Source: Candidatus Pelearchaeum maunauluense
Lineage (GTDB): Archaea; Thermoproteota; Nitrososphaeria_A; Caldarchaeales; Caldarchaeaceae
NCBI GenBank assembly: GCA_030059675.1
Contig: JANVYQ010000003.1
Coordinates: 35,547-99,546 of the forward strand
Reading direction: 5' to 3'
Length of the DNA stretch: 64,000 nucleotides
Shown: positions 1,311 through 63,760 of the stretch, piece after piece
Numbering within the stretch: position 1 is the stretch's first letter
Layout: the number at the start of each line of letters is the position of its first letter
Position numbers and translations under genes: made by a program
The notes under the pieces: model-generated
What the model saw: only the letters and a program-made list of their open reading frames with translations
Database searches by the model: none
Told to the model about the DNA's origin: nothing

Positions 1311-1440
1311 CTGGCCGTTATTTCTCAGGAATTCGGTTATAGATATTCTTATGGCCGCTTACTGATGTGCATTTATTGAGTATGGGGGTGCGCAAGGGAT
1401 TAATTGCGGCGTATTACGCTGGTATGGCTGGTGAGTGTCG

Positions 1441-1584
1441 GTGAAGCTAATATCAGTAAAGTTGCCAGAAGCCTTGATTGATGGTATGGACGAGTTGGTC
1501 AAGAGGGGCGTTTACCCAAGCAGGAGCGCGGTCATGCGCACAGCGGTTAGAGACCTGCTCAGAAAAGAGCTTTGGAAACAATAG
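1441..1584 (+). CDS. Small ribbon-helix-helix (CopG/Arc/MetJ-like) DNA-binding protein, 47 aa, GTG start
   Basis: VKLISVKLPEALIDGMDELVKRGVYPSRSAVMRTAVRDLLRKELWKQ matches the RHH beta-strand and two-helix pattern. Below the ORF-track length cutoff. Confidence 0.55.
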   Translation: MKLISVKLPEALIDGMDELVKRGVYPSRSAVMRTAVRDLLRKELWKQ

Positions 1585-2376
1585 CTATATCCTGAACGGA
1601 AGGTTCTTCACACTGACAACACGGCCATAGACGTACTTTAGGTCTGTCACGAATGGGGCGAAATCAAGCTCCTCCCCCTCGTCGCTCGGCAGGTAGCGTA
1701 TATACGGCCCAGCAGGCTTGTCGCTGAGCTCCATGTAGAAGAAGAGCGGTAGTGTGGAGGAGTCGTAGTAGTCAAAGAATGGGTAGAGTATGCCTAGGAG
1801 ATGTTTCTCTCGTTGTGCTAGGTGCCAGATTGGCGGTGTTGATGTGCTGTCGCTCATCGTGGCCACGAGCCGCATTAATGAAGCAAGGTTCCGCGCCCTA
1901 ACCATTATGGGTTTCTCACCATGCGAAACACTACTACGCTGCTTCACCGCCTCAGCAACGAAATAAGGCGTATCCTCAATCTCAACAACCACACAGTTGA
2001 TATACTTACCAGCCTCAGGGGTCGTTGTGATCTTTACCTCCTCCTTCTCCACATTGGTGTATGCGATGTATGGTGGAGGCCGGTCATTATACCATACATA
2101 GGCTAGTATTGGTATGTTTCCCTTCCAGAAGGGAATGGATGTCATATGAGCTATTACATGCTTCCCGCGTAGCGGGAAGCACCATAGGAGTGGTGGATAG
2201 TCGCTCCGCGTGGTTGCTAGTCTGGCGAGGCTAAGCAGGTCCTCTACCTCCACCGATACGGGAGGTTTTTCATGAAACGTTTTAGCTGCCTGTTTCTTCT
2301 TCAAAGCCGCCGTATCAACATTATCGCTCTGTAATATATTCTGCTCATTCTTTATAAGCCCGCTTGGGCCAGTCAT
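1585..2376 (-). CDS. Hypothetical protein made of two tandem homologous domains of about 95 aa
   Basis: Internal repeat LARLATTRSDYPPLLWCFPLRGKH... / LMRLVATMSDSTSTPPIWHLAQREKH... No family recognised. Confidence 0.5.
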   Translation of the reverse strand: MTGPSGLIKNEQNILQSDNVDTAALKKKQAAKTFHEKPPVSVEVEDLLSLARLATTRSDYPPLLWCFPLRGKHVIAHMTSIPFWKGNIPILAYVWYNDRPPPYIAYTNVEKEEVKITTTPEAGKYINCVVVEIEDTPYFVAEAVKQRSSVSHGEKPIMVRARNLASLMRLVATMSDSTSTPPIWHLAQREKHLLGILYPFFDYYDSSTLPLFFYMELSDKPAGPYIRYLPSDEGEELDFAPFVTDLKYVYGRVVSVKNLPFRI

Positions 2377-2382
2377 ACATGC

Positions 2383-3114
2383 ATGAAGGAACTCTCGGCA
2401 GATGCCTACAAGCTCGCTAAAGAGGCTTTAATGACTAGGATAGCTGGTGAGGTCATCTTCGCCCAGCAGCCTGGTGAGGCTCTTAGGAAGTGGCGTGTCC
2501 TCTTTGAGGAGAGCCAGACAGAGCTCGCGCGGATGATGGGAATAGCCCCATCAGTCTTAAGCGACTACGAGAAAAACCGCCGAAAATCGCCTGGGACCAA
2601 CTTCATAAGACGCTACGTCTCGGCTTTGATAGAGCTTGACGAGAAGCGCGGAGGGGCGCATATACGTAGATTCAGCAACCTTGTTAAAGACTTCAGCAGC
2701 GTCATACTCGCTATAGCGGAATTTACCAAGCCGCGGACAGCCGAAGAGATGGCGCGTGCGTTAGATGGTGTATGGCTAGCTGGGAAGAGCAACATGGACG
2801 CTGCAATATACGGATACACAGTCGTTGATAGCCTCCAAGCAATAATGAACCTAGACTCGCATGACTTTCTACACCTCTTCGGACAGAACTCCATGCGCCT
2901 TGTAGTCTTTACTGGAGTGAGTAGGGGAAGGTCGCCGATAATAGCTGTCAAAATATATCCAATTAAGCCGAAGATGGTTGCTATACACGGGCCGCGGAGC
3001 CCGTCTGAGGTTGACCCGCTGGGTAAGGAGCTGGCTGAGAGGGAGGGAATACCATACGTGCTCTCGCTTAAGAAAGATGTGAATAGCCTGATAGCTGCGC
3101 TCAGTAGGTTGTAG
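2383..3114 (+). CDS. Putative transcriptional regulator, XRE-type HTH near N-terminus plus C-terminal conserved domain (archaeal COG1395-like)
   Basis: HTH segment LRKWRVLFEESQTELARMMGIAPSVLSDYEKNRRKSP. Divergent from the 1585..2376 gene with only 6 bp between the start codons. Confidence 0.5.
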   Translation: MKELSADAYKLAKEALMTRIAGEVIFAQQPGEALRKWRVLFEESQTELARMMGIAPSVLSDYEKNRRKSPGTNFIRRYVSALIELDEKRGGAHIRRFSNLVKDFSSVILAIAEFTKPRTAEEMARALDGVWLAGKSNMDAAIYGYTVVDSLQAIMNLDSHDFLHLFGQNSMRLVVFTGVSRGRSPIIAVKIYPIKPKMVAIHGPRSPSEVDPLGKELAEREGIPYVLSLKKDVNSLIAALSRL

Positions 3115-3553
3115 TGGTTGTCTCCTTACGCACCAGCTTAGCGTTGAGGATACCATTAACGTATCTAATGTCCTTTATAATGACCTCAAACGGTAGGTGT
3201 AGTGTTCTCTTGAAGCCCATCCCCCCTCTGACTATGAGCTTACGGCCCGCGAGCTCTATCTTCACCCTATTCTCAGGGCCTGGCACCTGCGCGGTGAGGC
3301 TCAGGTGGTCTTCCTCCTCACGCAACTCGCAGAGCAGGTCGCTCCAGGCTTTCTTCCTAAGCGCCTTATTCAGCTCGCGTATCCAGTAAAACGCTAGACC
3401 AGCCGTTAGGGCTACGAGAATTATGCCTAGTAGCCCTTTATGGAACCTGAAGAGGAGTGTGGCTATGCCTATGAAGATTAGAGCTATGATTAGGTAGAGT
3501 ATGAAGGAGGACGATATGTCAACGCCTCTACCCCTACCCCTCTGCAGGCCTGG
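3101..3553 (-). CDS. Membrane-anchored alpha-crystallin (Hsp20)-like ORF: two predicted TM helices plus a shortened ACD. No ATG/GTG/TTG until the TTG at 3325. In frame with, and immediately after, the TGA stop of the UPF0182 gene
   Basis: Stop-free frame 3553..3104 encodes PGLQRGRGRGVDISSSFILYLIIALIFIGIATLLFRFHKGLLGIILVALTAGLAFYW...ELREEEDHLSLTAQVPGPENRVKIELAGRKLIVRGG...IRYVNGILNAKL, which resembles sHsp beta-strands and the C-terminal GVL motif. Confidence 0.35.
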   Translation of the reverse strand, partial: PGLQRGRGRGVDISSSFILYLIIALIFIGIATLLFRFHKGLLGIILVALTAGLAFYWIRELNKALRKKAWSDLLCELREEEDHLSLTAQVPGPENRVKIELAGRKLIVRGGMGFKRTLHLPFEVIIKDIRYVNGILNAKLVRKETTTTTY

Positions 3554-6376
3554 TCACCCCAGTATTATGGTCATGTAGCGTAAGACCACCACTCCATCTT
3601 CTACCATTATCGCACCCACATTTAAGCTATCTCCCTCAAGCCAGTAGAGGACCCTGCCCAGCCCCTTCTCAGTGACCCAATTCTGGAGGAACTCGTCCAG
3701 TTTTGCCTTCACGTTCTCCACGTCTCCCTCACTTATTAGGCGCACAGACCCCTCGAAGAAGACGAGGTTGGCGTTTATCTCCTCGGGCTCCTCAACCCTG
3801 AGGCCAGAATCCCTGAGGTGCTTGAGGACTATCTCCAACCACTCCTCAAACGTAAGCTCCCTAGCCTCCGGTGCGCTGGCTCCAGCGAGCTTGTAGAGGA
3901 AGTTCCTGAACGCCTCTTCAACACTATCACCCAGGCCGACGAAATACTGGCCTGTGAAGGCCGCCCCAACCGCTGCCACCGTTCCTATCTGCGTAACTAC
4001 CACGTCCTCAGCCCCCGCTGGAGCAGTGTAGACGGGGATTATATAGACTGGGTGCTGGCCTATGTTGTAGAGTATCCTCTCACCTATGCGTGGCGGGTTC
4101 TTAGGGTCTGTTGTGAGTAGCGTCTTGATTACTCTGAAATCGGGGTCGCGCTCAAGCGCCTGCTGCGCGGCCGTTGGGCCTAGGAGCTTCGTCTCTGACT
4201 CTGGTGGAACGGCGTAGAATATCATCTCACCAGTATAGGGGTAGTCGTTCCTCACCAGGATATAGCCTGCCAAGTTCCTGCCCTGCGCTCCCCTTACTTC
4301 AAGCGAGAGAAGACCAAGAAACTCCATCTTGCTAAAGCCCTGCGGCTTCTCCATAATATAATACACGCTAAGCCCCTGCGGCACCTCGTAAAACTCGCGA
4401 GCCTGGATAAACGTGGCTGGGTCGGTAACGTGATAGATGTTGAACATCTCCACACGCCACCTAAAGAGCTCGGCAGGATACCTAATCTGATTCCTCAACC
4501 ACTCAGGTACCTCCGTAGTTATGTAATCTGAATAAACCGTCTTGAAGAGCTGGGAGAAGAAGTCATCACCAGTTACTATGATGTTTATAGTCCCGTCATA
4601 CGCGTCTACGAGTGCGAAGCCTAGGAGGCGTGTGAAGGGGTTGCTGCGGGACCATGGTAGGTTGTCTGTCTTTAGGGCGACGATTAGTGGTACGAGCCAG
4701 TTGGCGCGCTCGCCGTTGGTTACGGGCAGCATGTCCACCAGCCTCCCGTCTTGCCAGCGGTAAGCGAAGTAGGGAAGTACTAGCTGCACCCGTTCATGGA
4801 CATCGCGGTAACGGAGTAGGTGTATTGTTCTATCAGGGTAGCTTAAGAAGAAGGTTATGTCAAATATCCAGCTCAGTGGCGGGGATACCTTAACCCCACC
4901 ACGCCCATCGTAGCGCACACCACCTATCTCATCTGAGTTCTCCTTTCCCTCAATAATCGCAGCCCAGGTAGTGCTGAACAAGCTATCTGCACCGCCCTCG
5001 CCATAGTATATGCGGCGCTCGCGGAAGAAGAGGCCAGGGTCAACCACGTCACCAGTATGTGCGTTAAGCATTAGGAAGCCCTCTGGAATGTGAGTATAAA
5101 CTAGGTGCTCGTTATACCATAAGTCTGCGGCCGTTACCGTGGGGGGCAGTACAGGCTTCATAGAGGCGCTCCAGTATAGGGTGTTGTTGAACCGTAGAAT
5201 GTCTGAGTCCTCAAACTGGACGTAGGGTATCAATCCTATCTCTGGCTTGAGCTTGGCGAACGCGGCGTCCCAGCCCCAGAGACTGACCCGCGAGAGTATA
5301 TCCATATTGCTCTCTATGTAGCTGTCTATATTCTCAGGGGGTATGGTAACGAGGCTGAAGTTATACGTCATTATCTTTATGTCGTCAAGCCGCGCCAGGT
5401 AGCGGTTTACCGCTATCTCCTGCGAGACATACGGGCCCTGCCACTCAAGCTTCTGGGCATCGGCTATGCTGTTCTGGATTGTTACCGCAGATGCAACAGC
5501 TAGCGCTATTAATATGAGCGCACCTGCCCTGAGGTAGATATTCCGCATAACAGGCATCTTACGCGAGTCCCAGTAAGCGAATAATGCGAATATCGCCGAA
5601 GTTACGAAGGCTGCGGTGATGAATATCTTTGTGTTGAAGTTTATGTAGTTTGAGAAGAAGATGTTAAATCCAGTCCAGGCGAGGCCTAGGCTGATTAATG
5701 CTTCTATCGTTGATGTCTTTATCGTAGCTACGCCTGTCTCTATAAATGAGATTACCGTGTGTGTTATTACCTTGATTATCTGAGTCAGCCCTATCAGGAG
5801 TATGAGTCTTATCCCTATGGCGCTTAGTATAGGTGGTATTAGCAGAGTTAAAGCTGGCGCAGCCTTTATCACCGTCTCAGCCCCCGTTGCTGAGCGCTGC
5901 TCAAACGTCGTGAAGGGCAGGCTGAAAATTCCTGGAACATGCTGGAGGCCAGAATCCCAGCCGCTGATACTTGCTATAAGCGTCATCCCAAAGAGGGCGT
6001 TGGACATTATCAGGGAGCCTATGAGTACCTTGGTTATCTGCCACATGACGAAGGTGGTGGGCTGCAGCCTGAAGCGCTCAAAGTTGAAGGGCCGCGGATG
6101 GAATAGCCCTCCGCGCATGCTGGCGAGGAATGTACGAAGAGCCCATAGAGTGAGGGATTTCCTGTCTCTTATGTTGAAACGGACAAACGCTATAACCGCT
6201 AGAATCAGCCCGCCCACATAGCTGAGGAAGAACGGCCTGATATACAGGTCGCCGAACTCGCTTATGTTTAGAAAGACTTGTAGTAGCTGGTTTCCGATGA
6301 GAGAGAAGAGTAGGGCAAAGATGATGAAAGAGACTATCCAGATAATCGCCCTACCCCTACGCCTATCTTCATACAT
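3554..6376 (-). CDS. UPF0182 family (COG1615) large membrane protein, 940 aa, N-terminal multi-TM region plus large soluble domain
   Basis: Length, N-terminal TM block followed by a long hydrophilic domain, and family-typical overall architecture. Ends with TGA at 3554-3556. Confidence 0.6.
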   Translation of the reverse strand: MYEDRRRGRAIIWIVSFIIFALLFSLIGNQLLQVFLNISEFGDLYIRPFFLSYVGGLILAVIAFVRFNIRDRKSLTLWALRTFLASMRGGLFHPRPFNFERFRLQPTTFVMWQITKVLIGSLIMSNALFGMTLIASISGWDSGLQHVPGIFSLPFTTFEQRSATGAETVIKAAPALTLLIPPILSAIGIRLILLIGLTQIIKVITHTVISFIETGVATIKTSTIEALISLGLAWTGFNIFFSNYINFNTKIFITAAFVTSAIFALFAYWDSRKMPVMRNIYLRAGALILIALAVASAVTIQNSIADAQKLEWQGPYVSQEIAVNRYLARLDDIKIMTYNFSLVTIPPENIDSYIESNMDILSRVSLWGWDAAFAKLKPEIGLIPYVQFEDSDILRFNNTLYWSASMKPVLPPTVTAADLWYNEHLVYTHIPEGFLMLNAHTGDVVDPGLFFRERRIYYGEGGADSLFSTTWAAIIEGKENSDEIGGVRYDGRGGVKVSPPLSWIFDITFFLSYPDRTIHLLRYRDVHERVQLVLPYFAYRWQDGRLVDMLPVTNGERANWLVPLIVALKTDNLPWSRSNPFTRLLGFALVDAYDGTINIIVTGDDFFSQLFKTVYSDYITTEVPEWLRNQIRYPAELFRWRVEMFNIYHVTDPATFIQAREFYEVPQGLSVYYIMEKPQGFSKMEFLGLLSLEVRGAQGRNLAGYILVRNDYPYTGEMIFYAVPPESETKLLGPTAAQQALERDPDFRVIKTLLTTDPKNPPRIGERILYNIGQHPVYIIPVYTAPAGAEDVVVTQIGTVAAVGAAFTGQYFVGLGDSVEEAFRNFLYKLAGASAPEARELTFEEWLEIVLKHLRDSGLRVEEPEEINANLVFFEGSVRLISEGDVENVKAKLDEFLQNWVTEKGLGRVLYWLEGDSLNVGAIMVEDGVVVLRYMTIILG

Positions 6377-6442
6377 CTACTGTTCAGCCAACTTTTAGCC
6401 ATGCTAATTGGCGACATTATAAGGTTTGACCAGAAATAGGGG

Positions 6443-7222
6443 CTATTTTCTCCTGATTTGCGTTGCGTCGTTCCAGAGGTATCCGAAGTAGTTTCTAGCA
6501 TATTTTGCCAGGCCAGGATGGTCTGACCATATAGCTAGGAGAAGGCCGCTCCCATCATCACCAGAGAAGACTATCACAACCTCGCGCGAATCCGCTATAA
6601 CACCGCCTCCAAACATCTGGTCCCTAACACGAACCTCAGCAACATCAAGCAACTTTGTCAAGAAGGACTGCTCAACAGTGTTGGAAACCATTATCTGAAC
6701 CTGACATCCGCGCGTGTGCGCTGCGCCAGCTATTGACTGAATCATCATAACTATCCCCTTGTTTAGCGCTGGTGCTGCTATGAGTAGCTCCTGCTCACAG
6801 CGTGTAGATACGTCGCGGATAGTCTCCATGATGCTGGCCTCGCCCCTCAGTATCCATATATCAGGCCTCTCCTTGGCTCCTCTCTTCTCGTATATCGGCA
6901 TAAGCTCGCTCAGGATGGTCTCCTCATTCCCCCTAAGCCGCTTCTCGAGCCTTAGACGCAGCGACTCCAGCGCCGTGGCTGGGGATTTGGGAACATATCT
7001 AGCGGGCCTACCGCCGTGTGTTTCAATAAATCCCTTCTCGTCAAGCGCACCCAAAACCTCATAAACCTTAGAATACGGCACCTGCGCCGCCTCACTAATC
7101 TCGCTAGCCGTCATCGGGCCATTCTCCACCAACGTTATGTAAGTCCTGCTCTCATACTCAGTAAGGCCCAACTCCTGCAGCGCCTTCCTTACCCGCTCCC
7201 TAACAGAGGATTGCTGTGACAT
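6443..7222 (-). CDS. TrmB-family transcriptional regulator (winged HTH plus C-terminal sugar-binding-like domain)
   Basis: N-terminal LGLTEYESRTYITLVENGPMTASEISEAAQVPYSKVYEVLGALDEKGFIE. Confidence 0.7.
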   Translation of the reverse strand: MSQQSSVRERVRKALQELGLTEYESRTYITLVENGPMTASEISEAAQVPYSKVYEVLGALDEKGFIETHGGRPARYVPKSPATALESLRLRLEKRLRGNEETILSELMPIYEKRGAKERPDIWILRGEASIMETIRDVSTRCEQELLIAAPALNKGIVMMIQSIAGAAHTRGCQVQIMVSNTVEQSFLTKLLDVAEVRVRDQMFGGGVIADSREVVIVFSGDDGSGLLLAIWSDHPGLAKYARNYFGYLWNDATQIRRK

Positions 7223-7296
7223 GGCTGAGCCGCCTCTATCTCACTATCCCACTCAAGCAATTTGTTATAAGGTTAAGGACTTGACAAAACATATGC

Positions 7297-7812
7297 TTAG
7301 GTCTCGATTCTGAAGAAACGTATGACCGCCTTAAGGAGAGCATACCCAGCCAAGACTATCGCTATAATTGAGCCAGTTAAGACGCCGAGCCATGTATAGA
7401 CGATTCCTGGGACGACGATTCCAAAGAGCTGGGTGTCTGGTATGTTGAGGAGTAGCTGTAAGTATGTTCCTACTATGAATGTTATTATGAGCGCCTGCAC
7501 CACGGTGGCGACAAGTAGTTTTCCACGGAAACGAAAGTTCGCGGCCATTTTCCATGCAACGTAGGTGGCGACGAGATTCGCTAGTGTTCCGCCAACTATA
7601 TCCACAACCCCCAGCGGGCTAACGCTGTTAGCTACCAAAGTCCCGATGGTAATCCCCACCACCGCCGGCAGGCCAAAGACCATCGAGAGGGGAAGAAGCA
7701 TATCAGCAACCCTCACCTGCACAACCTCAAAGCTTATCCCAGCCAGCCCTATAACCCCAGCCGCGTATAATGCAGCCAGCAAAGCGGCGGTAGAGATATC
7801 CCGTAGCTTCAT
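7297..7812 (-). CDS. QueT/ECF-S-component-like small membrane transporter (DUF988-like), probable start at MKLRDIS
   Basis: Five or six TM helices. Paralogous to the 36073..36585 ORF (shared ...G.P..LG...G.L..N..SP.G..D.....A... pattern). Confidence 0.4.
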   Translation of the reverse strand: MKLRDISTAALLAALYAAGVIGLAGISFEVVQVRVADMLLPLSMVFGLPAVVGITIGTLVANSVSPLGVVDIVGGTLANLVATYVAWKMAANFRFRGKLLVATVVQALIITFIVGTYLQLLLNIPDTQLFGIVVPGIVYTWLGVLTGSIIAIVLAGYALLKAVIRFFRIET

Positions 7813-12281: not shown

Positions 12282-13436
12282 TCACATTATAGCACCTTCC
12301 CTCTTTAAGGCTGTTATCTCCTCATTACCCATGCCGAGCATTCTAAGCACTTCCTCAGTATGTTCTCCGAGTTCGGGAGCATGCGCTGTTATTTCTTCGC
12401 TTCTTATACATGATGGTGTTGAGAGTATCGTAACTGGTCCAAGATTTGGATAATCTTTACTGAATACTATATCCCTCTCAGCTACCAGCTCGCTCTTAAG
12501 CGCTTCATCAAGCTCTAGAACAGGAGCGAAGCACTCCACCTTGGAGTAAAGAATCTCAACCCATTCTTCAAGGCTCTTCGTCCTAAATAGCTGGCGTAGC
12601 TCTTCGGTTGCTTTACTGTCGTATTGTTTTTCTATGAGGTCTTCCCTGCCTACTGTCTTACAGAACTTCTCCCATATATGCGGTTCTAGGGGCATTCCTA
12701 GAGTTATGTATCGCCCATCCTTCGTCTCATATACGTTATAGCATGGTAAGCCACCCATCAATACATGCTCCCCACCCCGCGGCACTTTACCGCTTGCTAG
12801 ATACTCAGCAATGAAGAGAGATATGAATGGAAATACGCTCTCAAACATCGTTATGTCTAGCTGTTTCCCCCTGCCGCTTACTTGCCTCTCCAGAAGAGCT
12901 GAAAGTATTCCCAGCACTGCCGTTAATGCTGTGGCGAAATCAGCCAATAATACACCAGGAACTATAGGCCTGCCGTTCTCCTGTTTCATCATGCCTAAAG
13001 CGCCTGTAAGCGCCATGATGTTTATATCGTGAGCGGAAAGCCCAGAATACTTACCTCCATAACCAAATGCGGAGATTGAGCAGTAAATAATCCGTTCATT
13101 CAGTTTCCTAATTGATTCATAATCAATCCCTAGTCGTCTGGTTGTGGATGGATTAAAACCAATGATCACTATGTCCGAAACTTGGCATAACCTATAGAAT
13201 ATGTCGCGCCCAGCTTTTGATTTTAAATTGATGGCTATACTCTTCTTACCCCTATTAACAATAAGATGTAAGATACTAACATCTCCACGTATTGCGAGTT
13301 TTCTAGTTGTATCGCCGACTCCTGGTTGCTCTATCTTTATAACCTCTGCACCAAGCTCTGCAAGAAGTAGTGTAGCGTAACTCCATGGTGGCATGTTTGT
13401 AAGGTCCAGCACCCTCACCCTGCTAAGCGGCCTCAT
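12282..13436 (-). CDS. CoA-transferase family III (CaiB/BaiF-like)
   Basis: VRVLDLT...LLAELGAEVIKIE N-terminal signature, 384 aa. Confidence 0.8.
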   Translation of the reverse strand: MRPLSRVRVLDLTNMPPWSYATLLLAELGAEVIKIEQPGVGDTTRKLAIRGDVSILHLIVNRGKKSIAINLKSKAGRDIFYRLCQVSDIVIIGFNPSTTRRLGIDYESIRKLNERIIYCSISAFGYGGKYSGLSAHDINIMALTGALGMMKQENGRPIVPGVLLADFATALTAVLGILSALLERQVSGRGKQLDITMFESVFPFISLFIAEYLASGKVPRGGEHVLMGGLPCYNVYETKDGRYITLGMPLEPHIWEKFCKTVGREDLIEKQYDSKATEELRQLFRTKSLEEWVEILYSKVECFAPVLELDEALKSELVAERDIVFSKDYPNLGPVTILSTPSCIRSEEITAHAPELGEHTEEVLRMLGMGNEEITALKREGAIM

Positions 13437-13547
13437 GCGAGATGAATCAGTAACTACTATCGCATATTAGCATAATGAAAATTAACAGCGTTATTTCTCT
13501 ATAGTTGGAGTCTAAATACTTAAAGCGTATAAGACATTCCACACTTA

Positions 13548-15473
13548 TTGATTAGTCCTATGCCCAGCGTAATCTTGGGTGAGTCTGGTAAGTCTGATTT
13601 TCTGATGGGAAACGAGGCAATAGCACGGGGAGCTTTGGAGGCAGGTGTCGCTGTCGCTGCAGGTTATCCTGGAACGCCTTCATCCGAGATAATAGATACG
13701 TTGCTGGAGGTAGCTGAGGAGTTTGGGATTTACGTAGAGTGGTCTGTTAATGAGAAGGTCGCTCTAGAGATAGCTCTCGCGGCAAGTTTCTGCTGGGCTA
13801 GGTCGCTCTGCGCTATGAAGCACGTAGGCCTAAACGTTGCCCACGACGCTCTAGTGAATGCCTGCTACATAGGAGCGCGAGGAGGCTTCGTAATAGTCTC
13901 CGCGGAAGACCCTGGAGCATGGAGCTCGCAGAACGAGCAGGACAACAGATACATAGCCATGCAGGCCTACATGCCAGTCTTTGAGCCCTCAGACCCGCAG
14001 GAAGCAAAAGACATGATCGTCTATGCTTATGACTTCTCTGAGCAGCTGAATACTCCAGTCCTGCTCAGAACCGTGACGTGCGTAAGTCATTCTACGGGGA
14101 GTTTTGTCTTCGGCGATATCGTAAAGCCTGAAAGGCGGGTATATTTTGAGAAGCGGCCAGACTTGCTCATATACGATTCCGCCGGAGCTCGTAGGAATCG
14201 TCTAGCATTAATTAAACGATTCGAGAAAGTGCGGGAGGCAGTAAATAGCGTCCCCTTCAATAAGATGATGTTAAACGATGGCAGTGTGGGGGTTATTGTT
14301 TCAGGGGTAGCATACCGCTATGTGATGGAAGCTCTCAAAATTCTAGACAGAAAGGATAAAGTCTCTCTTCTGAAGATAGGTACACACTATCCCCCTCCAA
14401 GGGAAGCGATAGTAAGGTTCCTAGGCGCTGTTGATAGCGTCATGGTTGTTGAGGAGGTTGAGCCCATTCTAGAAACGCTTGTAAAGAGTATAGCTTATGA
14501 GGAGGATATAGATGTAGAGATTTGCGGACGGAGTATTCTTCCTAGAGGTGGCGAGCTAACCCCGCGCATAGTCTTGGAGGCGTTATCCAGCTTTCTAGAC
14601 ATAGATAATCCGCTTGATGCTGATGCGCTGGATAAGGCATGGGGCTACAGTAATAGCCTGCCACCACCTAGGCCGCCTACCCTGTGCCCAGGCTGCCCAC
14701 ACAGGGCAAGCTTCTACTCAATCTCCACAGTGGCTAAGAGGCTTGACAGGAATCCCAAGCTCTACGGGCTGGACCAACTATATGGGGAGAAAACAGAAAC
14801 AATACTGCCTGGCGATATAGGGTGCTACGGCCTGGCTTACCTACCGCCGTTCAAGGCAATAGACACGATAATCTGTATGGGCGCAGGCCTGGGGTTTGCC
14901 AACGGCCTAGCCAGGCTAGTAAAACAGCCAATAATAGTAAGCGTGGGAGATTCTACATTCTTCCACGCAACAATACCAGCTCTGATAAACGCCGTCTACA
15001 ACAACGCGCGGATAGTTCTGGTAGTGCTGGATAATGACGTAACAGCTATGGCTGGGGAGCAGCCCCATCCAGGTAGTAGCATCGTTTCCCAAGAGGGTAA
15101 GAGGCTTATAAAGATAGAGGACGTGGCCCGCGGATGTGGTGTGGAGCTGGTGCGCGTGGTCAATCCAGGAAACTTTGAAGAAACTCAAAAAGCGCTGGTG
15201 GATGCTCTGAAACATGATGGGCCGTCTGTCATAGTTCTTAGACGGCCTTGCGAGCTTCTACGAGTGCGTGAAAGGCTGCGCAAAGGAGAACCCCAGTCCC
15301 CATACATGGTGCTCACCGAGAAATGTACTGGCTGCATGATATGCATCAACCAGTTTGGATGCCCTGCTATAGTCAAAGCAGGTGATAAAGTGATGATAGA
15401 TTCCTCCATCTGTACTGGATGCGGGGACTGTGCTAAGGTCTGTGTTCCTAAGGCTATTGTGACGTGTGGTTAG
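13548..15473 (+). CDS. iorA: Indolepyruvate:ferredoxin oxidoreductase alpha subunit (IorA)
   Basis: GNEAIARGALEAGVAVAAGYPGTPSSEI TPP-enzyme N-terminus; C-terminal 2x[4Fe-4S] CTGCMICINQFGCP...CTGCGDCAKVC; 641 aa. Confidence 0.8.
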   Translation: MISPMPSVILGESGKSDFLMGNEAIARGALEAGVAVAAGYPGTPSSEIIDTLLEVAEEFGIYVEWSVNEKVALEIALAASFCWARSLCAMKHVGLNVAHDALVNACYIGARGGFVIVSAEDPGAWSSQNEQDNRYIAMQAYMPVFEPSDPQEAKDMIVYAYDFSEQLNTPVLLRTVTCVSHSTGSFVFGDIVKPERRVYFEKRPDLLIYDSAGARRNRLALIKRFEKVREAVNSVPFNKMMLNDGSVGVIVSGVAYRYVMEALKILDRKDKVSLLKIGTHYPPPREAIVRFLGAVDSVMVVEEVEPILETLVKSIAYEEDIDVEICGRSILPRGGELTPRIVLEALSSFLDIDNPLDADALDKAWGYSNSLPPPRPPTLCPGCPHRASFYSISTVAKRLDRNPKLYGLDQLYGEKTETILPGDIGCYGLAYLPPFKAIDTIICMGAGLGFANGLARLVKQPIIVSVGDSTFFHATIPALINAVYNNARIVLVVLDNDVTAMAGEQPHPGSSIVSQEGKRLIKIEDVARGCGVELVRVVNPGNFEETQKALVDALKHDGPSVIVLRRPCELLRVRERLRKGEPQSPYMVLTEKCTGCMICINQFGCPAIVKAGDKVMIDSSICTGCGDCAKVCVPKAIVTCG

Positions 15474-58492: not shown

Positions 58493-58585
58493 GGGGCCGT
58501 GGTCTAGTGGCTATGACGCCGCCCTTACACGGCGGAGAGCGGCAAACATGCCCGCAAGCCGTGGGTTCGAATCCCACCGGCCCCA
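58493..58585 (+). tRNA. tRNA-Val (anticodon TAC) with an approximately 20-nt intron at a non-canonical site in the variable-loop region (about 58538..58557)
   Basis: Acceptor GGGGCCG/CGGCCCC, U8, D-arm GTCT-AGTGGCTA-TGAC, anticodon arm CCGCC-CTTACAC-GGCGG, T-arm GTGGGTTCGAATCCCAC. 25 nt lie between position 43 and the T-stem where 5 are expected. Confidence 0.7.
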
Positions 58586-58589
58586 CCTT

Positions 58590-59426
58590 CTAGTCTTTTT
58601 TGTATGCTCTGATGACCAGCGGAAGAGCTGTCATGAGATATGCGAGCTGTATTGCTAGTCTCCCTATCTCGGCTTTTACCGTATAGCCGAATAATACCGC
58701 AAATATCGAGCCTATGACGTTTTTGTCGTGTAGTAGGCTGTCTGTTGGTATAGGTAGCGCGTATGCCGTTTGTGCGAACCAGCCGAGTGAGATTCCGCTA
58801 TCCTCGGCAAATTCTATAAGCTCATGCGTCCCGTAGCCAGCTAGACCACCGGCCAAAAGTACCAATAATATGCTGGTTATGTAAAAGAACCGTCTTATGT
58901 TTAGACGCATTCCTATGAAGAATAGAGCATATGCTAACGCGACTGCTACAGCTGCTCCTAAGAAAGAACCTATTGATGATGATAGTGGGTTTCGGACTAG
59001 GAATGGAATTATGAAGAGCACTGTTTCAAGACCTTCGCGGAATACTATTACGAATGAAAATGCTGTAAGTCCTATCACTGTTCCGCGCGTAGTAATCTGT
59101 TCCACCCTGCTCTCGATTTCTGTTTTTATTGATTTAGCCTTGGTGGCCATCCAGAGTATCATGGTTGAGAGCACGACAACTGCCAGCCATGCGGCTACTC
59201 CTTCAAACAGTGCCTTTGTAGCACCACTAAGAGCGCCATATAGCATCCAGCTTAGCGAGCCCAACAATATGCTTGCGAATAGAGCAGTATAGACGCCGTA
59301 CTTAACGTATTTCGTGAGTATTTTCCTGCCTGTTTTTGAGAGATACGCGAGAATTATTGAGACGATGAGCGCAGCTTCAAAACCTTCACGCAGTGTTATG
59401 AGCGCTTCTGCGAATACCATTCTCAT
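58590..59426 (-). CDS. FTR1/OFeT-family high-affinity iron permease
   Basis: Two REGxE motifs (REGFEA, REGLET), 7 TM, 278 aa. Confidence 0.8.
   Translation of the reverse strand: MRMVFAEALITLREGFEAALIVSIILAYLSKTGRKILTKYVKYGVYTALFASILLGSLSWMLYGALSGATKALFEGVAAWLAVVVLSTMILWMATKAKSIKTEIESRVEQITTRGTVIGLTAFSFVIVFREGLETVLFIIPFLVRNPLSSSIGSFLGAAVAVALAYALFFIGMRLNIRRFFYITSILLVLLAGGLAGYGTHELIEFAEDSGISLGWFAQTAYALPIPTDSLLHDKNVIGSIFAVLFGYTVKAEIGRLAIQLAYLMTALPLVIRAYKKD
58595..58601 (+). terminator. Oligo-T tract after tRNA-Val (overlaps the last codons of the convergent FTR1 gene)
   Basis: TTTTTTT 10 nt past the tRNA 3' end. Confidence 0.3.
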
Positions 59427-59492
59427 CTACACCTTGTGAGCCAGTTTTTGCCGACCACGTCTATAACGGTGTTATAGTTCTATTTAACCTTC

Positions 59493-59520
59493 ACTTTGTG
59501 AAATAATTATTTCACAAAGT
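59493..59520. promoter_or_regulatory. Perfect 28-bp palindrome ACTTTGTGAAATAA|TTATTTCACAAAGT in the divergent FTR1/regulator intergenic region, flanked by further GTGAAA/TTTCAC half-sites and a CTATAAC-N3-GTTATAG inverted repeat (59461-59477)
   Basis: Direct reading of the sequence. Located between divergent starts at 59426 and 59596. Confidence 0.5.
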
Positions 59521-59595
59521 TACTCACAAGGTATTTAATTACCGTGAAATATAGGTAATCTTCACACCGTTAAATAGTTAATCGCGGTGTGAAAA

Positions 59596-60339
59596 TTGAT
59601 GATGAACCTGAGGGCGGAGAAGATAATTCCAGGAGTTAGGGCTGTGCTTGCCCGTCTTTTGGTTGAGAAGTATGGCTTGAAGAAGGTTGAGGTTGCTAGA
59701 GCTCTTGGCTTGAGTCCGCAGGCTGTTACTCAGTATCTTACGGGTGCGCGTGCTGGGGATGCGGCGGAGATGCTAAAGCACCAACAAGTATTGACGTTGA
59801 TAGAGGATTTGGCAGCCAAGATAGCGGCAAGAGGAGGCCAGCTTATGCAGGCCGAGATAATAGACCTGGCTTTCGAGATAGCTTCGATAATCCAGTCAAA
59901 GCCTGAGGAAGAAAAGGCAGAAGCTATTCCAACTGATGTTAGAGAGAAGTTGCTGAAGACCCTACGAGCAAGGCTTCAGGCCGAGCAGGAGGCTGCCGAG
60001 CTGTTTATGGGTGTTGCGGCGAAGATGCGTAATGATTTGAGCAGACTTCTATTTAGGCAGATAGCCAGCGACAGCATAAGACACGCAGACATAGTAATGG
60101 CCACAATATCAGCGATAGAGCGGGGTGAAAACACCCCAGTAGATTTCCCAGAAGAGAAAGAGCTTAAGAAATTGCTAGAGAATGAAGAAACGGCTCATGT
60201 CCATAGTCTTGAAGATGTTAGGCACCTAATACAGAACGATGTCATAGGGCTGCTCATAGATTCTATTGAGGCTGACGAGGAGAAGCACGCGAAGATACTG
60301 GCTAAACTGATTAGCATTAAACAGCAGAAAAAGCAGTAA
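59596..60339 (+). CDS. Putative regulator: N-terminal HTH plus C-terminal ferritin-like (ExxH-containing) helical domain
   Basis: KKVEVARALGLSPQAVTQYL HTH; C-terminal DSIRHADIV, ETAHVH, IEADEEKHAKIL motifs. Confidence 0.4.
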   Translation: MMMNLRAEKIIPGVRAVLARLLVEKYGLKKVEVARALGLSPQAVTQYLTGARAGDAAEMLKHQQVLTLIEDLAAKIAARGGQLMQAEIIDLAFEIASIIQSKPEEEKAEAIPTDVREKLLKTLRARLQAEQEAAELFMGVAAKMRNDLSRLLFRQIASDSIRHADIVMATISAIERGENTPVDFPEEKELKKLLENEETAHVHSLEDVRHLIQNDVIGLLIDSIEADEEKHAKILAKLISIKQQKKQ

Positions 60340-60343
60340 ATAT

Positions 60344-60574
60344 CTACTCTTCTGGGGTTTTTAGGCCGAGCTTCTGCCGTAGCCTAACTATCCTCTCCCT
60401 ATGCTCGCGTACGAGGGGCCCGATATCTTTGGGTGCCTCATAGCCATGCTTCTCGCGCATAGAAATCTTGAACAAAGCCCATCTGCGGGCCAGCTCGTCA
60501 AGCTCCTCTGAAGTTATCTCAGCCCGTAGAATCTCTTTAGCTATGCTATCAAACTCGTCCCTACCATCTTGCAT
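60344..60574 (-). CDS. Small hypothetical protein (76 aa)
   Basis: ORF only; charged and helical composition. Confidence 0.25.
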   Translation of the reverse strand: MQDGRDEFDSIAKEILRAEITSEELDELARRWALFKISMREKHGYEAPKDIGPLVREHRERIVRLRQKLGLKTPEE

Positions 60575-60643: not shown

Positions 60644-61000
60644 ATGGCATCATATGACGCGCTTATAATCTACCTAGTTCTAGTAGTGATACTCCCTCTA
60701 CTATTCTGGGGTATGAACAAGCTTCTGGGCCCCCGTAGGCCCCAGAGAAAGAAGAGTATAGCCTTTGAGTGTGGGCAGGAGCCTATGCGATGGAGGCCAT
60801 CTCCCTTCCCATTTGAATATTTCCCATACGCCATAATCTATGTGGCTTACGCGGTTTTGGCTGTTGTTGCGTTTCTCACATCGGTAACGCTGATAGATAG
60901 ACCAGACGCGGCTCTTCGCGTGATATTGATACTCGCTATAATAAGCGCCTCGTCAATCTATTTGGCGCTAAACCTTAGAGACCTAGGGCAGAGGTTGTAG
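60644..61000 (+). CDS. nuoA: NADH-quinone oxidoreductase subunit A
   Basis: FECGQEPMRWRPSPFPFEYFPYAIIYV ... three TM helices. Confidence 0.7.
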   Translation: MASYDALIIYLVLVVILPLLFWGMNKLLGPRRPQRKKSIAFECGQEPMRWRPSPFPFEYFPYAIIYVAYAVLAVVAFLTSVTLIDRPDAALRVILILAIISASSIYLALNLRDLGQRL

Positions 61001-61004
61001 TGAT

Positions 61005-62042
61005 ATGCCACTAACAGCTCAAATCCTTCCTCCACCAATCGAGCAGCTCATAAACTTCATCGCAAGTGACGCGTTTGTTAAAGCAGTTATATTTCCAGGC
61101 GTCATATTTGTATCAGTCTTTGGGCTTTTTACTGTCTGGTATGAGAGAAAGTTGCTGGCGCGTGTGATGTTGCGTATAGGTCCTCTGCATGTCGGTAAGT
61201 ATGCTGGTCTTCTGCAAGTTGTAGCGGATACTGTAAAGTTCCTAGCCAAAGAGTATATTGTCCCAGAAACTGCTAGACGCCGTTTATTCGTACTAATGCC
61301 GATGCTCGGCGTGGTTATTAATGCGCTTCTATTTGCATTCCTCCCCTTCGGCCCTATGTGGCTCATATTCCCATCAGACATAAGCATACTCCTCTTCTTC
61401 GTCTTAGTGGCTATCTCTCCTCTACCGCTCATACTGGCTGGCTGGGCGTCTGGAAACAAATACAGCCTGATAGGCATCGTTAGATTCGCCTTCCAGATAT
61501 TCGCATACGAGATACCGTTGTTCCTAGCTCTTACTGGTGTTATCGTGATGGCTCGTTCATTTGATATAGTTAAGATAGTTGAAGCCCAAGCATCCATGCC
61601 GTTCATCGTACCGCAGATAATTGGGTTCTTGGCTTTCTTCATAACCTTGGTGAGCGAAGTAGAGCGGATCCCCTTTGATATGCCAACAGCCGAGCAGGAG
61701 CTTGTAGAGGGATGGATGGTGGAATTCTCCTCCTATGGATTCTTAATGCTTCAGTTAGCAAATTACCTAAAGCTAGACGCGCTAGTAGTACTAACGGCCC
61801 TCCTATACCTAGGTGGGTGGTACGGGCCAGCCATACCTGGAATACCAGACTTCATACTAGCTCCCCTCTGGGTTCTCCTAAAATCCCTAGTCATACTAGC
61901 AGCCATACTCCTCCTAAGAGGAACTTATCCACGGATAACGATTAAGAAAATATTAGACCTGGGTTGGCGGGTTCTCATACCGATGACGTTGCTAAACCTG
62001 CTCATAGTAAGTGTTATTATGACTATTCCCCAGCTCCTCTAA
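61005..62042 (+). CDS. nuoH: NADH-quinone oxidoreductase subunit H
   Basis: WYERKLLARVMLRIGPLHVGKYAGLLQVVADTVKFLAKEYIVPE. Confidence 0.8.
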   Translation: MPLTAQILPPPIEQLINFIASDAFVKAVIFPGVIFVSVFGLFTVWYERKLLARVMLRIGPLHVGKYAGLLQVVADTVKFLAKEYIVPETARRRLFVLMPMLGVVINALLFAFLPFGPMWLIFPSDISILLFFVLVAISPLPLILAGWASGNKYSLIGIVRFAFQIFAYEIPLFLALTGVIVMARSFDIVKIVEAQASMPFIVPQIIGFLAFFITLVSEVERIPFDMPTAEQELVEGWMVEFSSYGFLMLQLANYLKLDALVVLTALLYLGGWYGPAIPGIPDFILAPLWVLLKSLVILAAILLLRGTYPRITIKKILDLGWRVLIPMTLLNLLIVSVIMTIPQLL

Positions 62043-62431
62043 CGGCCTGCTATTCTCTCCGCCGCTATCTTCAGAATAACTCTAGTCTCTCTACCCTTCC
62101 ATGGATATTTTTCCTTCCCTAGATACTTCTTGGCAAGCGAGTCTATATGCTCGTCAGCGCCATCTGTGGTCTGCTCAATCACACGGCCACGTATCATATA
62201 CGCTTTATACGGATTATTCCAGTCCACTATCGCTATAGCAACACGCGGGTCTCTGCTAACGTTACGTTGCTTCACTCTCCCCACCGCGGTATTCACGCGT
62301 ATTGTGTCGTCTTCTCTATCAATCCATACAGGCGTAACCTGAGGCGAGCCGTCAGGCATTATTGTTGCCAGAAAAGCAAAATTCTTACTGTCTATCATCT
62401 TCTTTAGTTCTTCGGGCAGTTCCAATACCAT
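62039..62431 (-). CDS. Pyridoxamine 5'-phosphate oxidase-like FMN-binding split-barrel protein
   Basis: NFAFLATIMPDGSPQVTPVWI..., 130 aa. Confidence 0.7.
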   Translation of the reverse strand: MVLELPEELKKMIDSKNFAFLATIMPDGSPQVTPVWIDREDDTIRVNTAVGRVKQRNVSRDPRVAIAIVDWNNPYKAYMIRGRVIEQTTDGADEHIDSLAKKYLGKEKYPWKGRETRVILKIAAERIAGR

Positions 62432-62472
62432 GCAATATAATTAATGAGGGGTGAAAATATGGTTTTCGTATA

Positions 62473-62850
62473 CTACCCCTTCCGCATTCGCTTCAGCTTG
62501 AATTCTAGGCCAGTGGCTATAAGGTTGGCGCGAGTTATAGCATATACCACCTGGTTTGATATGCGGGCATGTAACATGCTATCCACGTTACCGCCATTCT
62601 CACGCCATTTGCTATATATTGATACAATGTTATTGTTCAAGTCATCATAGCCAGCCATAATTTTCAAAAATTCCTGATTATTCTTGAGTTGTTCATTTGT
62701 CTGATACGCCTTTTCTATGTATGAATAGTCTTCCTCGTCAAGAAACTTTCTTAAGTAGTAGATTAGCTCCTTAATCTTTGTACGGCATTCAAGCATGGTA
62801 GCACGTTGTGACGCTGTTATTTCATGCGAAGCGCTCATTCTATCCGCCAC
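62473..62850 (-). CDS. Hypothetical helical protein in a lower-GC patch
   Basis: ORF only. Confidence 0.3.
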   Translation of the reverse strand: MADRMSASHEITASQRATMLECRTKIKELIYYLRKFLDEEDYSYIEKAYQTNEQLKNNQEFLKIMAGYDDLNNNIVSIYSKWRENGGNVDSMLHARISNQVVYAITRANLIATGLEFKLKRMRKG

Positions 62851-63760
62851 CTCGTAGTATTAGATGTAGTCTTTCAAACCAGCCAAGCTCGGCAGGCGGC
62901 TGTGTTCTCGGAGGACTGGCCAGCTTCCTCGGGTCATAATAGAGAGAGATACGGTCTGTTGCTGACAGCTCATATTCGGGAGACATTTCCAAGGCGTAGA
63001 ATGGGCATGCATCAACACAGAATCCACAGAATACGCATCTACCATAATCTACAGATGGGAAGTATGACTTCTTATTCTGGGGCATACCCTCATCTATCTT
63101 TACGACTCCCAGTCTTATCTTTAAGTCGTCACGGGTTATCTCGTGATACTCGTCTTCTTTATCGGCTCCCTCAACAGTGACGGGCTTAACGCTCCAACCA
63201 TTCTCAGAGCACCAGCGTAGGAACTCGGAGAAATGCTTCTCTATCACCGCCTCGGAGCGATAGTCATATATGGGGTCTAGGTTTAGCTTCCACACATAGC
63301 TGCTATCCTTCTGCTGTACGCTGCGAATGTCAGACCATGCGACTGGGATAACTGGGTGAGATACTGATAGGTTATGCTCACTATGCTGCTTAGGCGATAA
63401 GCTATCCACCAAAGCCTCCATAAGCTCCACAACAGTCTTCTCCCCCCTCTTTAGAGCATCGTAGAAAGCCTTATCAAAATGCAGTAAGACATTAAACCCA
63501 TACACCATAGTTATTGCCTCTGAAATATTCTGGCACGCTATATCACAAAGACTACAACCCGTGCATTTATTCATGTGTAGGACGTGTCTCCCCTTAAAGC
63601 CAGGGTAGGCTATGCCCGCCTTTGGGTCGTATCTAAAGTTCTCTCCTGTAACGTTTTCTATCCTCTCATAAGGATACTTGACAGTCACGGGTGTCATGAA
63701 TATGTGTTTTACCGCAACTACAAACGGCTTAATTACACGCGAGACTTGGCTGAGCGACAC
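62840..63760 (-). CDS. nuoI: NuoI-like 2x[4Fe-4S] ferredoxin subunit with an approximately 130-aa insertion between the two cluster motifs
   Basis: CTGCSLCDIAC ... (about 150 aa) ... CVFCGFCVDACP; N-terminus VKYPYE like NuoI; 306 aa versus about 160-180 typical. Confidence 0.5.
   Translation of the reverse strand: MSLSQVSRVIKPFVVAVKHIFMTPVTVKYPYERIENVTGENFRYDPKAGIAYPGFKGRHVLHMNKCTGCSLCDIACQNISEAITMVYGFNVLLHFDKAFYDALKRGEKTVVELMEALVDSLSPKQHSEHNLSVSHPVIPVAWSDIRSVQQKDSSYVWKLNLDPIYDYRSEAVIEKHFSEFLRWCSENGWSVKPVTVEGADKEDEYHEITRDDLKIRLGVVKIDEGMPQNKKSYFPSVDYGRCVFCGFCVDACPFYALEMSPEYELSATDRISLYYDPRKLASPPRTQPPAELGWFERLHLILRGGG

Follow-up and report, generated by a model that had tools for sequence, protein, structure and literature searches.

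A divergent iron permease promoter in Candidatus Pelearchaeum maunauluense and its predicted helix-turn-helix/rubrerythrin-like regulator

By what DNA element, and in response to what signal, might an archaeal iron permease gene be controlled by the regulator gene that faces it? This question is raised by a 64,000-nucleotide (nt) stretch of Candidatus Pelearchaeum maunauluense DNA (contig JANVYQ010000003.1, positions 35,547 to 99,546; hereafter the window, whose own coordinates are used throughout). An FTR1/EfeU-family permease gene (58590-59426, minus strand; 278 amino acids, aa), the presumed regulated target, diverges from a gene (59596-60339, plus strand; 247 aa from a TTG codon or 246 aa from ATG 59599) that encodes an XRE-type helix-turn-helix (HTH) and a rubrerythrin-like domain. 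A first-pass annotation had described a perfect 28-bp palindrome within a dense array of half-sites between these genes and had proposed a metal-sensing repressor of iron uptake. The regulator is, on sequence criteria, a member of an uncharacterised archaeal family that joins an XRE-type HTH to a rubrerythrin/ferritin-like sensor. Its candidate operator is a 13-bp palindromic box, and there is high confidence that regulator and boxes are a cognate transcription factor/operator pair. What the sequences themselves show is the palindrome with its array of boxes, the domain make-up of the regulator, and the way in which regulator, boxes and metal-transporter genes occur together throughout the family; dimeric binding, the TATA and start positions, the sign of regulation and the effector are inferred from them.

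The gap between the two genes is 169 bp long (59427-59595), or 172 bp if the regulator starts at ATG 59599. It contains the 28-bp perfect palindrome exactly as annotated (59493-59520; 14-nt arms ACTTTGTGAAATAA and TTATTTCACAAAGT). This is the sole even perfect palindrome with arms of at least 9 nt in the window, and the longest arm found across 100 first-order Markov randomisations of the window was 10 nt. Four of the 23 GTGAAA/TTTCAC hexamers of the window fall in the gap (approximately 0.06 expected), as do three of the four copies of the octamer GTGAAATA. A second, 7-bp inverted repeat that had been noted was also found (CTATAAC/GTTATAG, 59461-59477). The half-site array is likewise present, but the count of at least three more half-sites was one too high: two strict hexamers lie outside the palindrome (59544 and 59589), with TTCAC/GTGAA pentamers at 59490 and 59561 as further half-sites. 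The hexamer excess, the unique palindrome and the box enrichment described below show that the dense operator-like array is real and non-random. An Rfam scan of the gap returned no families and a terminator scan no terminator-like sites, and a riboswitch or terminator reading was rejected on this basis. A sigma-70 promoter scan gave nothing above shuffled controls, the model being inapplicable to an archaeon.

The operator unit is predicted to be neither GTGAAA nor the 28-mer but a box of the form TT[A/C]AC-N3-GT[G/T]AA, and the 28-mer is best described as a pair of such boxes (B and C below), offset by 21 bp start to start, plus an AT-rich spacer. This definition comes from a set of 67 loci encoding relatives of the regulator, drawn from Caldarchaeales/Aigarchaeota, Conexivisphaerales, Nitrososphaerales, Bathyarchaeia, Thermoplasmata, Methanomassiliicoccales and Micrarchaeota. 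In these relatives, the DNA preceding the regulator gene shows a 9- to 20-fold excess of hexamers such as TGTTAA, CGTTAA, GTGTTA and TGTGAA. When the flanks of the YGTKAW matches are aligned (M = A/C, K = G/T, Y = C/T, W = A/T), a mirrored TAAC appears five bases upstream, so that the unit is a 13-bp palindrome.

Boxes with at most two mismatches number 120 and occur in 43 of 54 regulator-upstream regions, at 14.4 per kb versus 1.0 per kb in the remaining DNA of the loci. A position weight matrix (PWM) at a threshold of at least 11 bits gives 74 hits in 8.1 kb of upstream DNA versus 49 in 517 kb elsewhere (approximately 96-fold), and several of those 49 actually precede regulators whose open reading frames (ORFs) went uncalled. 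Adjacent boxes are most often 21-22 bp apart, or about two helical turns (28 of 70 pairs), a spacing seen across Caldarchaeales, Nitrososphaerales, Micrarchaeota and Methanomassiliicoccales. With regard to orthologous promoters, related boxes are present, including at all five of the other FTR1-paired loci, while the 28-mer itself is confined to the window and its closest relative (L001). Additional box pairs precede a ZIP gene (L035) and an ATP-binding cassette (ABC) permease gene (L038). On the protein side, hardly any variation is seen in the recognition helix xPxAVTQYxKGxR, where all 56 of 56 members have Y47 and R52, as would fit a conserved DNA target.

Could the symmetry belong instead to another factor, or to structural DNA such as a cruciform or recombination site, with the HTH protein an unrelated neighbour? 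As single-stranded DNA the palindrome folds into a hairpin (-10.2 kcal/mol, z = -5.9), and the region borders a cassette-exchange junction beside a tRNA gene. However, a hairpin needs only the 28-mer and not five dispersed boxes, the boxes follow the regulator gene across lineages whatever its neighbour, with the enrichment given above, and the 21-22 bp phasing and conserved recognition helix fit a cognate pair. This explanation is therefore regarded as highly improbable. Under the preferred reading of a cognate pair, control by the regulator of its own gene and of the divergent transporter gene is very likely.

The palindrome core TGTGAAATARTTATTTCACA has 16 matches in metagenome contigs, none with the regulator or transporters; these are chance matches in AT-rich DNA and are useless for regulon prediction. 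A PWM scan of the window gave seven hits of at least 10 bits versus 3.8 expected, which is not significant beyond the FTR1-regulator locus. Of the three hits outside that locus, those at 7619 and 53755 lie inside long ORFs, are probably due to chance and were discarded as regulon members. The only intergenic one is a lone strong box (TTAACAGCGTTAT, 13482-13494; 15.5 bits) flanked by a coenzyme A-transferase-like ORF (12282-13436, minus strand) and an indolepyruvate-ferredoxin-oxidoreductase-like ORF (13548-15473, plus strand). It could be a second regulon site or a chance match. In a separate subgroup (L028, L030, L032 and L035), the regulator gene is preceded not by 13-bp boxes but by a common element, CACAAAGGATTTAGCG. 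These loci are mostly paired with a Phosphoesterase-family gene (PF04185), and the L035 box pair mentioned above lies 2 kb from the regulator, upstream of the ZIP gene.

In the window, five boxes (A to E, given without strand) fill the divergent promoter, and one box pair straddles each of two TATA-like elements. TATA and start-site assignments were made by reading the sequence by eye. For FTR1, the putative TATA element reads GTTAAATAG on the minus strand (59480-59488). From its position, transcription is predicted to start near 59457, giving a leader of approximately 31 nt. In the presumed FTR1 5' leader (59427-59461, minus strand), plus-strand CACC at 59430-59433 corresponds to a Shine-Dalgarno-like GGTG, and a weak box with two mismatches, TACACCTTGTGAG, lies at 59428-59440. 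Box A (ATAACGGTGTTAT, 59463-59475; 12.6 bits) is the core of the inverted repeat at 59461-59477 and lies between the TATA element and the predicted FTR1 start, a position that it shares with boxes in L001 and in Caldarchaeum loci. Box B (TTCACTTTGTGAA, 59490-59502; no mismatches, 14.2 bits) adjoins the side of the FTR1 TATA element where the transcription factor B recognition element (BRE) would lie. Box C (TTCACAAAGTTAC, 59511-59523; one mismatch, 10.6 bits) follows 21 bp start to start from box B, and the palindrome spans most of both boxes and their spacer. Next comes an isolated half-site (CGTGAAATA, 59543-59551) with no partner half-site at N3 spacing.

Box D (TTCACACCGTTAA, 59561-59573; no mismatches) is the best in the window at 17.7 bits and overlaps the putative BRE and TATA element of the regulator gene. 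This TATA-like element (TTAAATAG, 59570-59577, plus strand) is centred approximately 26 nt upstream of ATG 59599, which fits a leaderless transcript. Box E (ATCGCGGTGTGAA, 59581-59593; two mismatches) lies between it and the start codon, and boxes D and E together make a 13-nt inverted repeat that brackets it. Both TATA-like elements, one for each gene, are supplied by a perfect 9-nt inverted repeat (CTATTTAAC at 59480-59488 and GTTAAATAG at 59569-59577). Caldarchaeum loci have TATTTAA(A) at the equivalent place between boxes A and B, and the order box A, TATA, box B, box C (+21 bp) and box D with a second TATA recurs in them.

The positions of the boxes relative to these putative TATA elements argue for occlusion-type repression at both promoters, and it is on them that the word repressor in the earlier proposal depends. 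The opposite sign has also to be considered: the regulator could be mainly an activator, or a repressor in its apo form that is released by metal, contrary to a Fur/DtxR-like model. Some archaeal activators occupy the position that boxes B and C have here, upstream of the FTR1 TATA element, and the argument from position depends on TATA assignments deduced from sequence. Yet boxes A and E lie between TATA-like elements and predicted starts, box D overlaps a TATA element, and in Caldarchaeum 4 nt separate box A from the binding-protein start codon. Such positions are typical of repression by occlusion. A metal-loaded sensor, moreover, normally represses uptake genes. Activation or apo-repression is thus considered quite unlikely, and repression by the metal-loaded form is retained in what follows.

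What the regulator might sense depends on its C-terminal domain. The 28-kDa protein is identical to a public 246-aa hypothetical protein (P0001) of an Aigarchaeota metagenome-assembled genome. An XRE-type HTH occupies residues ~7-52, two linker helices span residues 63-100, and a rubrerythrin-like helical domain makes up residues 113-246. HTH_3 (PF01381) matches residues 22-52 above its cut-off (28.4 bits versus 23), AlphaFold2 places HTH helices at 30-37 and 41-49, and a family profile built from 25 members matches the lambda-repressor-like structure 28tn (E-value: 5e-4). The Pfam Rubrerythrin family (PF02915) matches the isolated C-terminal domain by a small margin (24.3 bits versus a cut-off of 22.8) and the full-length protein just below it (22.0 bits); 15 of 16 family members match at an E-value of at most 0.01. 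The annotated combination of an HTH with a ferritin-like domain is thereby borne out, by the isolated domain in the case of the latter. Residues 115-240 give weak profile matches (E-values: 0.007-0.1) to the mini-bacterioferritin 9qq4, the Pyrococcus rubrerythrin-like protein 2fzf and designed 4-Glu/2-His bundles. The top 50 Foldseek matches in the PDB are all ferritins, bacterioferritins, Dps proteins or rubrerythrins except for one de novo 4-Glu/2-His helical bundle. By profile, Pfam and Foldseek matches the sensor does resemble ferritin-like proteins, in agreement with what was first suggested from its ExxH motifs.

The putative ligands are largely conserved. E130, D159, S160, H163, R126, R154 and D227 are invariant in an alignment of 56 members, in which E197, E228, K230 and H231 are present in 53. 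On alignment with the mini-bacterioferritin, E130, H163 and E228xxH231 fall on ligand positions. The regulator has two ExxH motifs, which the first-pass annotation had taken as typical of a di-iron site. E228xxH231 is conserved in the family and to that extent the claim holds, but E198xxH201 is not. The canonical ExxH of helix B is replaced by D159-S160-x-R-H163, which puts Ser160 where bacterioferritin has a Glu ligand and leaves the canonical six-ligand di-iron site incomplete. The sensor is accordingly classed, from these alignments, as a divergent, incomplete-ligand member of the rubrerythrin/ferritin-like superfamily. Three Nramp-paired Micrarchaeota loci (L059, L061 and L066; regulator at ~4001) encode regulators with E197A, E228D, K230E and H231Q in which E130, D159, S160 and H163 are kept. 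These loci nevertheless hold the best box pairs of the data set, and their regulators may have a half-site sensor or an altered metal specificity.

The AlphaFold2 model consists of the HTH, the two linker helices and four long helices (predicted local distance difference test, pLDDT: 89.9 for the full length and 93.1 for the C-terminal domain; predicted template modelling score, pTM, of that domain: 0.81). No closed ferritin bundle could be superposed on it globally (TM at most 0.41). The signature is thus ferritin-like in sequence, while the chain as predicted by the model is not a closed ferritin bundle. The connection between helices B and C is only approximately 10 residues long, which makes either a simple up-down bundle or a domain-swapped dimer conceivable, and the sensor could be either one. 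Some rubrerythrins are known to be domain-swapped. Among 1.84 billion representative proteins, a profile search recovered 52 two-domain clusters at E-values below 1e-30, as well as proteins with the N- or C-terminal domain alone. The source annotations of family members read only "hypothetical protein", "helix-turn-helix domain-containing protein" or "predicted transcriptional regulator/rubrerythrin".

The genes paired with the regulator provide the main argument for a role in metal homeostasis. A census was made of divergent genes within 400 bp upstream of the regulator in the 67 loci. The partner is ZIP-like in 15 loci, Nramp in eight, FTR1 in five (in addition to the window), FeoA in three and an SBP_bac_8 binding protein in one, for a total of 32 of 67 with a metal-type partner. 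It is the recurrence of five unrelated families of cation transporters in distant lineages that carries this argument. Pfam and NCBIfam confirm the partner families, with most ZIP-like proteins below threshold and the L035 ZIP protein above it. In 11 loci an ABC-3 permease converges on the regulator; in Caldarchaeum loci (L008, L012-L020 and L026; ~4700-7250, minus strand) the regulator gene, at its 3' end, either overlaps or directly adjoins the final gene of an ABC-3 (Tro/Znu/Mnt-type) metal ABC operon. In L021 and L023 the divergent neighbour (~2964-3923) encodes a TackOD1 (Thaumarchaeal output domain 1) protein, whose Cys pairs resemble those of a zinc ribbon.

On this evidence a divalent metal, for instance Fe(II) or Mn(II), is taken, with slightly better than even confidence, as the predicted effector, and the metal-loaded form as the one that would repress. 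The metal role in the earlier proposal thus gains support from the 32 metal-type partners. Its iron specificity is not established, owing to another kind of partner: a PhnD-type binding-protein gene that heads a PhnDCE-type ABC operon.

Several observations weigh against a metal-sensing regulator. In the 14 closest loci, all from Caldarchaeales, the box-bearing promoter drives this PhnD/PhnC/PhnE-type importer, whose family is annotated by NCBIfam as oxyanion/phosphonate (for phosphonate, phosphite and phosphate). Nothing else in the sequence data argues more strongly against strict iron specificity than this pairing. A divergent phosphoesterase gene is present, and boxes are missing, in three loci, no boxes were found at the own promoter of the converging ABC-3 metal operon in Caldarchaeum, and 12 of 68 upstream regions have no box of at least 8.5 bits. 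The counts are also not independent, as many loci are close relatives. In the protein, Ser160 in place of the canonical helix-B Glu means that a classical di-iron site is not guaranteed, and the invariant R126, R154, R162 and K230 near the putative site are unusual for a cation site.

These observations suggest an alternative in which the ligand of the sensor is not a metal but, for instance, an oxyanion (e.g. phosphite, phosphonate or phosphate), perhaps bound alongside a metal. In that case the PhnDCE-type importer would be the ancestral target and the FTR1 pairing a secondary accident of cassette replacement. The 14 box-bearing importer loci, which include the 97%-identical orthologue of the window's regulator, are as this predicts, and the importer itself is well identified (PhnE: 241 bits versus an equivalog cut-off of 216.7; PhnD subfamily: 162 versus 112). 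The phosphoesterase genes and the Arg and Lys residues that flank the putative site point the same way. The phosphoesterase-paired loci, however, are those without boxes, and outside Caldarchaeales the 32 loci with cation transporters of five families come from several archaeal lineages. The putative ligand residues are identical whichever partner gene is present, and a His/Glu/Asp set on a ferritin-like scaffold is the signature of a metal site. An oxyanion sensor is accordingly judged very unlikely.

A second alternative accepts the metal but changes the signal: a bound di-iron centre might sense O2, H2O2 or redox state, so that DNA binding follows oxidative stress and Fe/Mn transport is tuned to limit Fenton chemistry. 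The sequence family that matches best, Rubrerythrin, comprises peroxide-reducing di-iron proteins, and both rubrerythrin and hemerythrin centres react with oxidants. The Nramp and ZIP (Mn/Fe) partners also fit a logic like that of PerR, in whose regulons Fe is swapped for Mn under oxidative stress. Against this, no peroxidase, superoxide reductase, thioredoxin or other antioxidant gene is found among the conserved neighbours in the 67 loci. One canonical ligand is missing, and the regulator lacks the rubredoxin-like domain of true rubrerythrins: Pfam detects no rubredoxin-like Cys4 domain and the alignment contains no conserved Cys. A redox sensor is considered unlikely, and a divalent metal remains the preferred effector.

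How the FTR1 gene came to be placed under this promoter is suggested by comparison with L001, a Candidatus Pelearchaeum locus and the closest relative of the window (regulator: 97% amino-acid identity; flanks: approximately 90% DNA identity, collinear on both sides). In a blastn comparison, similarity stops at 58597 and resumes at 59462, which defines a window-specific cassette (58598-59461) consisting of FTR1 and its 5' leader. In its place L001 has 2.45 kb (1419-3867) encoding PhnD-, PhnC- and PhnE-type proteins (Pfam and NCBIfam). The left junction lies 10 nt past a tRNA-Val gene, and the right junction, at 59462, is close to the predicted FTR1 transcription start. From these junctions it appears that the promoter-operator module stayed whole when one transcription unit took the place of another. 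Neither mobile-element genes nor repeats were noticed at the junctions, although no search was aimed at them. FTR1 is probably the derived state in the window, since in every one of the 14 Caldarchaeales relatives the boxes are accompanied by a PhnDCE-type importer. The L001 palindrome (ACTCTGTGAAATAG and TTATTTCACAGAGT) differs from that of the window by one mirrored pair of bases changed together (T to C and A to G) and by one central base alone. The mirrored substitution suggests selection for symmetry (estimated chance probability: ~0.03-0.05).

The model proposed for the locus can be summarised briefly. The regulator would bind the 13-bp boxes, probably as a dimer. Fe(II) or Mn(II) would probably be held at the conserved site formed by E130, D159/S160, H163, E197, E228 and H231, and occupancy of this site would favour the DNA-binding form. 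Bound regulator would block recruitment of TBP/TFB or RNA polymerase at both promoters. When metal is sufficient, FTR1-mediated iron uptake and the regulator's own gene would presumably both be repressed.

The identity of the permease in this model is solid, as first annotated. FTR1 matches Pfam PF03239 over profile positions 2-281 of 284 (E-value: 1e-65; 222.3 bits versus a cut-off of 25.3) and has both REXXE motifs (REGFE at residue 13 and REGLE at residue 130). A crude hydropathy scan indicates approximately seven hydrophobic segments. The NCBIfam EfeU/Ftr1 subfamily gives an E-value of 2.6e-58, with EfeU/Ftr1 models below their equivalog and subfamily cut-offs. The full-length match and paired motifs are shared with characterised FTR1/EfeU systems; the window gene differs from them in having no adjacent partner, as neither EfeO/EfeB, a multicopper oxidase/ferroxidase nor a P19-type partner is adjacent to it. 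Such a partner is typical of these systems and not strictly required for family membership. The gene is monocistronic, lying between the operator and the tRNA-Val gene that directly follows it.

That tRNA-Val(UAC) gene (58493-58587, plus strand), which marks the left edge of the exchanged cassette, is 93-95 nt long and exceeds the 71-position tRNA model by approximately 20 nt. The extra bases follow the anticodon stem and are probably a non-canonical intron. On the other side, a 76-aa ORF (60344-60574, minus strand) with no Pfam or NCBIfam family converges on the regulator gene across a 4-nt gap, and this neighbour is kept in L001 and L006. The genes beyond it (60644-63760) were identified by translation only and are syntenic with L001. 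They include NADH:quinone oxidoreductase-like genes (NuoA-like, 118 aa; NuoH-like, 345 aa), a ferredoxin-type ORF of 306 aa with two CxxCxxCxxxCP motifs and a pyridoxamine-phosphate-oxidase-like ORF of 130 aa.

A broader proposal is put forward tentatively, with somewhat less than even confidence: the family may constitute a new structural class of metalloregulator. In it, dimerisation, and with it phased, cooperative binding of the XRE-type HTH to TTMAC-N3-GTKAA arrays, would depend directly on Fe(II)/Mn(II) occupancy of a ferritin-like di-metal site, possibly one that two subunits form through a hairpin swap. Iron/manganese uptake would be switched mainly by this family in Nitrososphaerota (Aigarchaeota, Conexivisphaerales and Nitrososphaerales), Micrarchaeota and some Thermoplasmata and Bathyarchaeia, and the operator would act as a fixed socket into which cassettes (FTR1, PhnDCE-type ABC, ZIP, Nramp and FeoAB) are exchanged. 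To our knowledge, nearly all that is understood of archaeal metal sensing concerns DtxR- and Fur-type proteins of a few cultivated euryarchaea. If the family does sense metal, it would add a class of sensor built on the ferritin-like fold, and the box would offer a defined motif from which metal regulons could be predicted in lineages represented mainly by metagenomes, among them relatives of ammonia-oxidising archaea, in which iron supply limits growth. The replacement of the transporter cassette beside an intact promoter-operator module is, in addition, a clear example of regulon rewiring.

How does this regulator compare with known systems? A full-text literature search found no description of an HTH-rubrerythrin regulator, which is absence of evidence within the library searched, and COG1395 was dismissed as a match because it is an unrelated family. 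With rubrerythrin, bacterioferritin and other di-iron bundles (PF02915 and PF00210), and with the de novo "due ferri" proteins, the sensor shares the E...xxH/E...ExxH pattern on two helical hairpins. It differs in being fused to a DNA-binding domain, in having Ser160 for one Glu with the invariant Asp159 beside it, and in showing neither a rubredoxin domain nor any sign of cage assembly. A di-iron helical bundle also serves as an iron-status or iron-handling module on an effector domain in FBXL5, through its hemerythrin domain, and in erythrin-VIT1 (MbfA). Their effectors, an F-box ubiquitin-ligase adaptor and a membrane iron exporter, respectively, do not bind DNA, and the hemerythrin fold is distinct from the rubrerythrin type.

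The proposed logic is that of Fur and of DtxR/IdeR/MntR/TroR, including the archaeal DtxR-type Idr, SirR and TroR (PMC5737653, PMC10783522, PMC3074139). In that logic, a metal-loaded dimeric HTH protein occupies palindromic operators that overlap the core promoters of metal-uptake genes and often of its own gene. The protein itself is of another kind. Pfam and NCBIfam scans of the regulator detect no Fur or DtxR family at E-values up to 1, and among solved structures the one trace is that the family profile weakly matches the HTH part of DtxR-type ScaR (3hrs; E-value: 0.17). Its HTH is XRE-type rather than winged-helix, its sensor is a ferritin-like helical bundle, and its 13-bp operator is neither a Fur box nor a DtxR box. 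In modular design the regulator resembles the bacterial XRE-cupin factors, which likewise join an XRE-type HTH to a small ligand- or metal-binding sensor. The XRE-cupin factors repress locally, acting on a neighbouring gene that is often divergent, and the effectors known for them are metabolites (PMC7901475, PMC10965056). Their sensor is a bacterial beta-barrel cupin, whereas that of the present regulator is archaeal, all-helical and ferritin-like.

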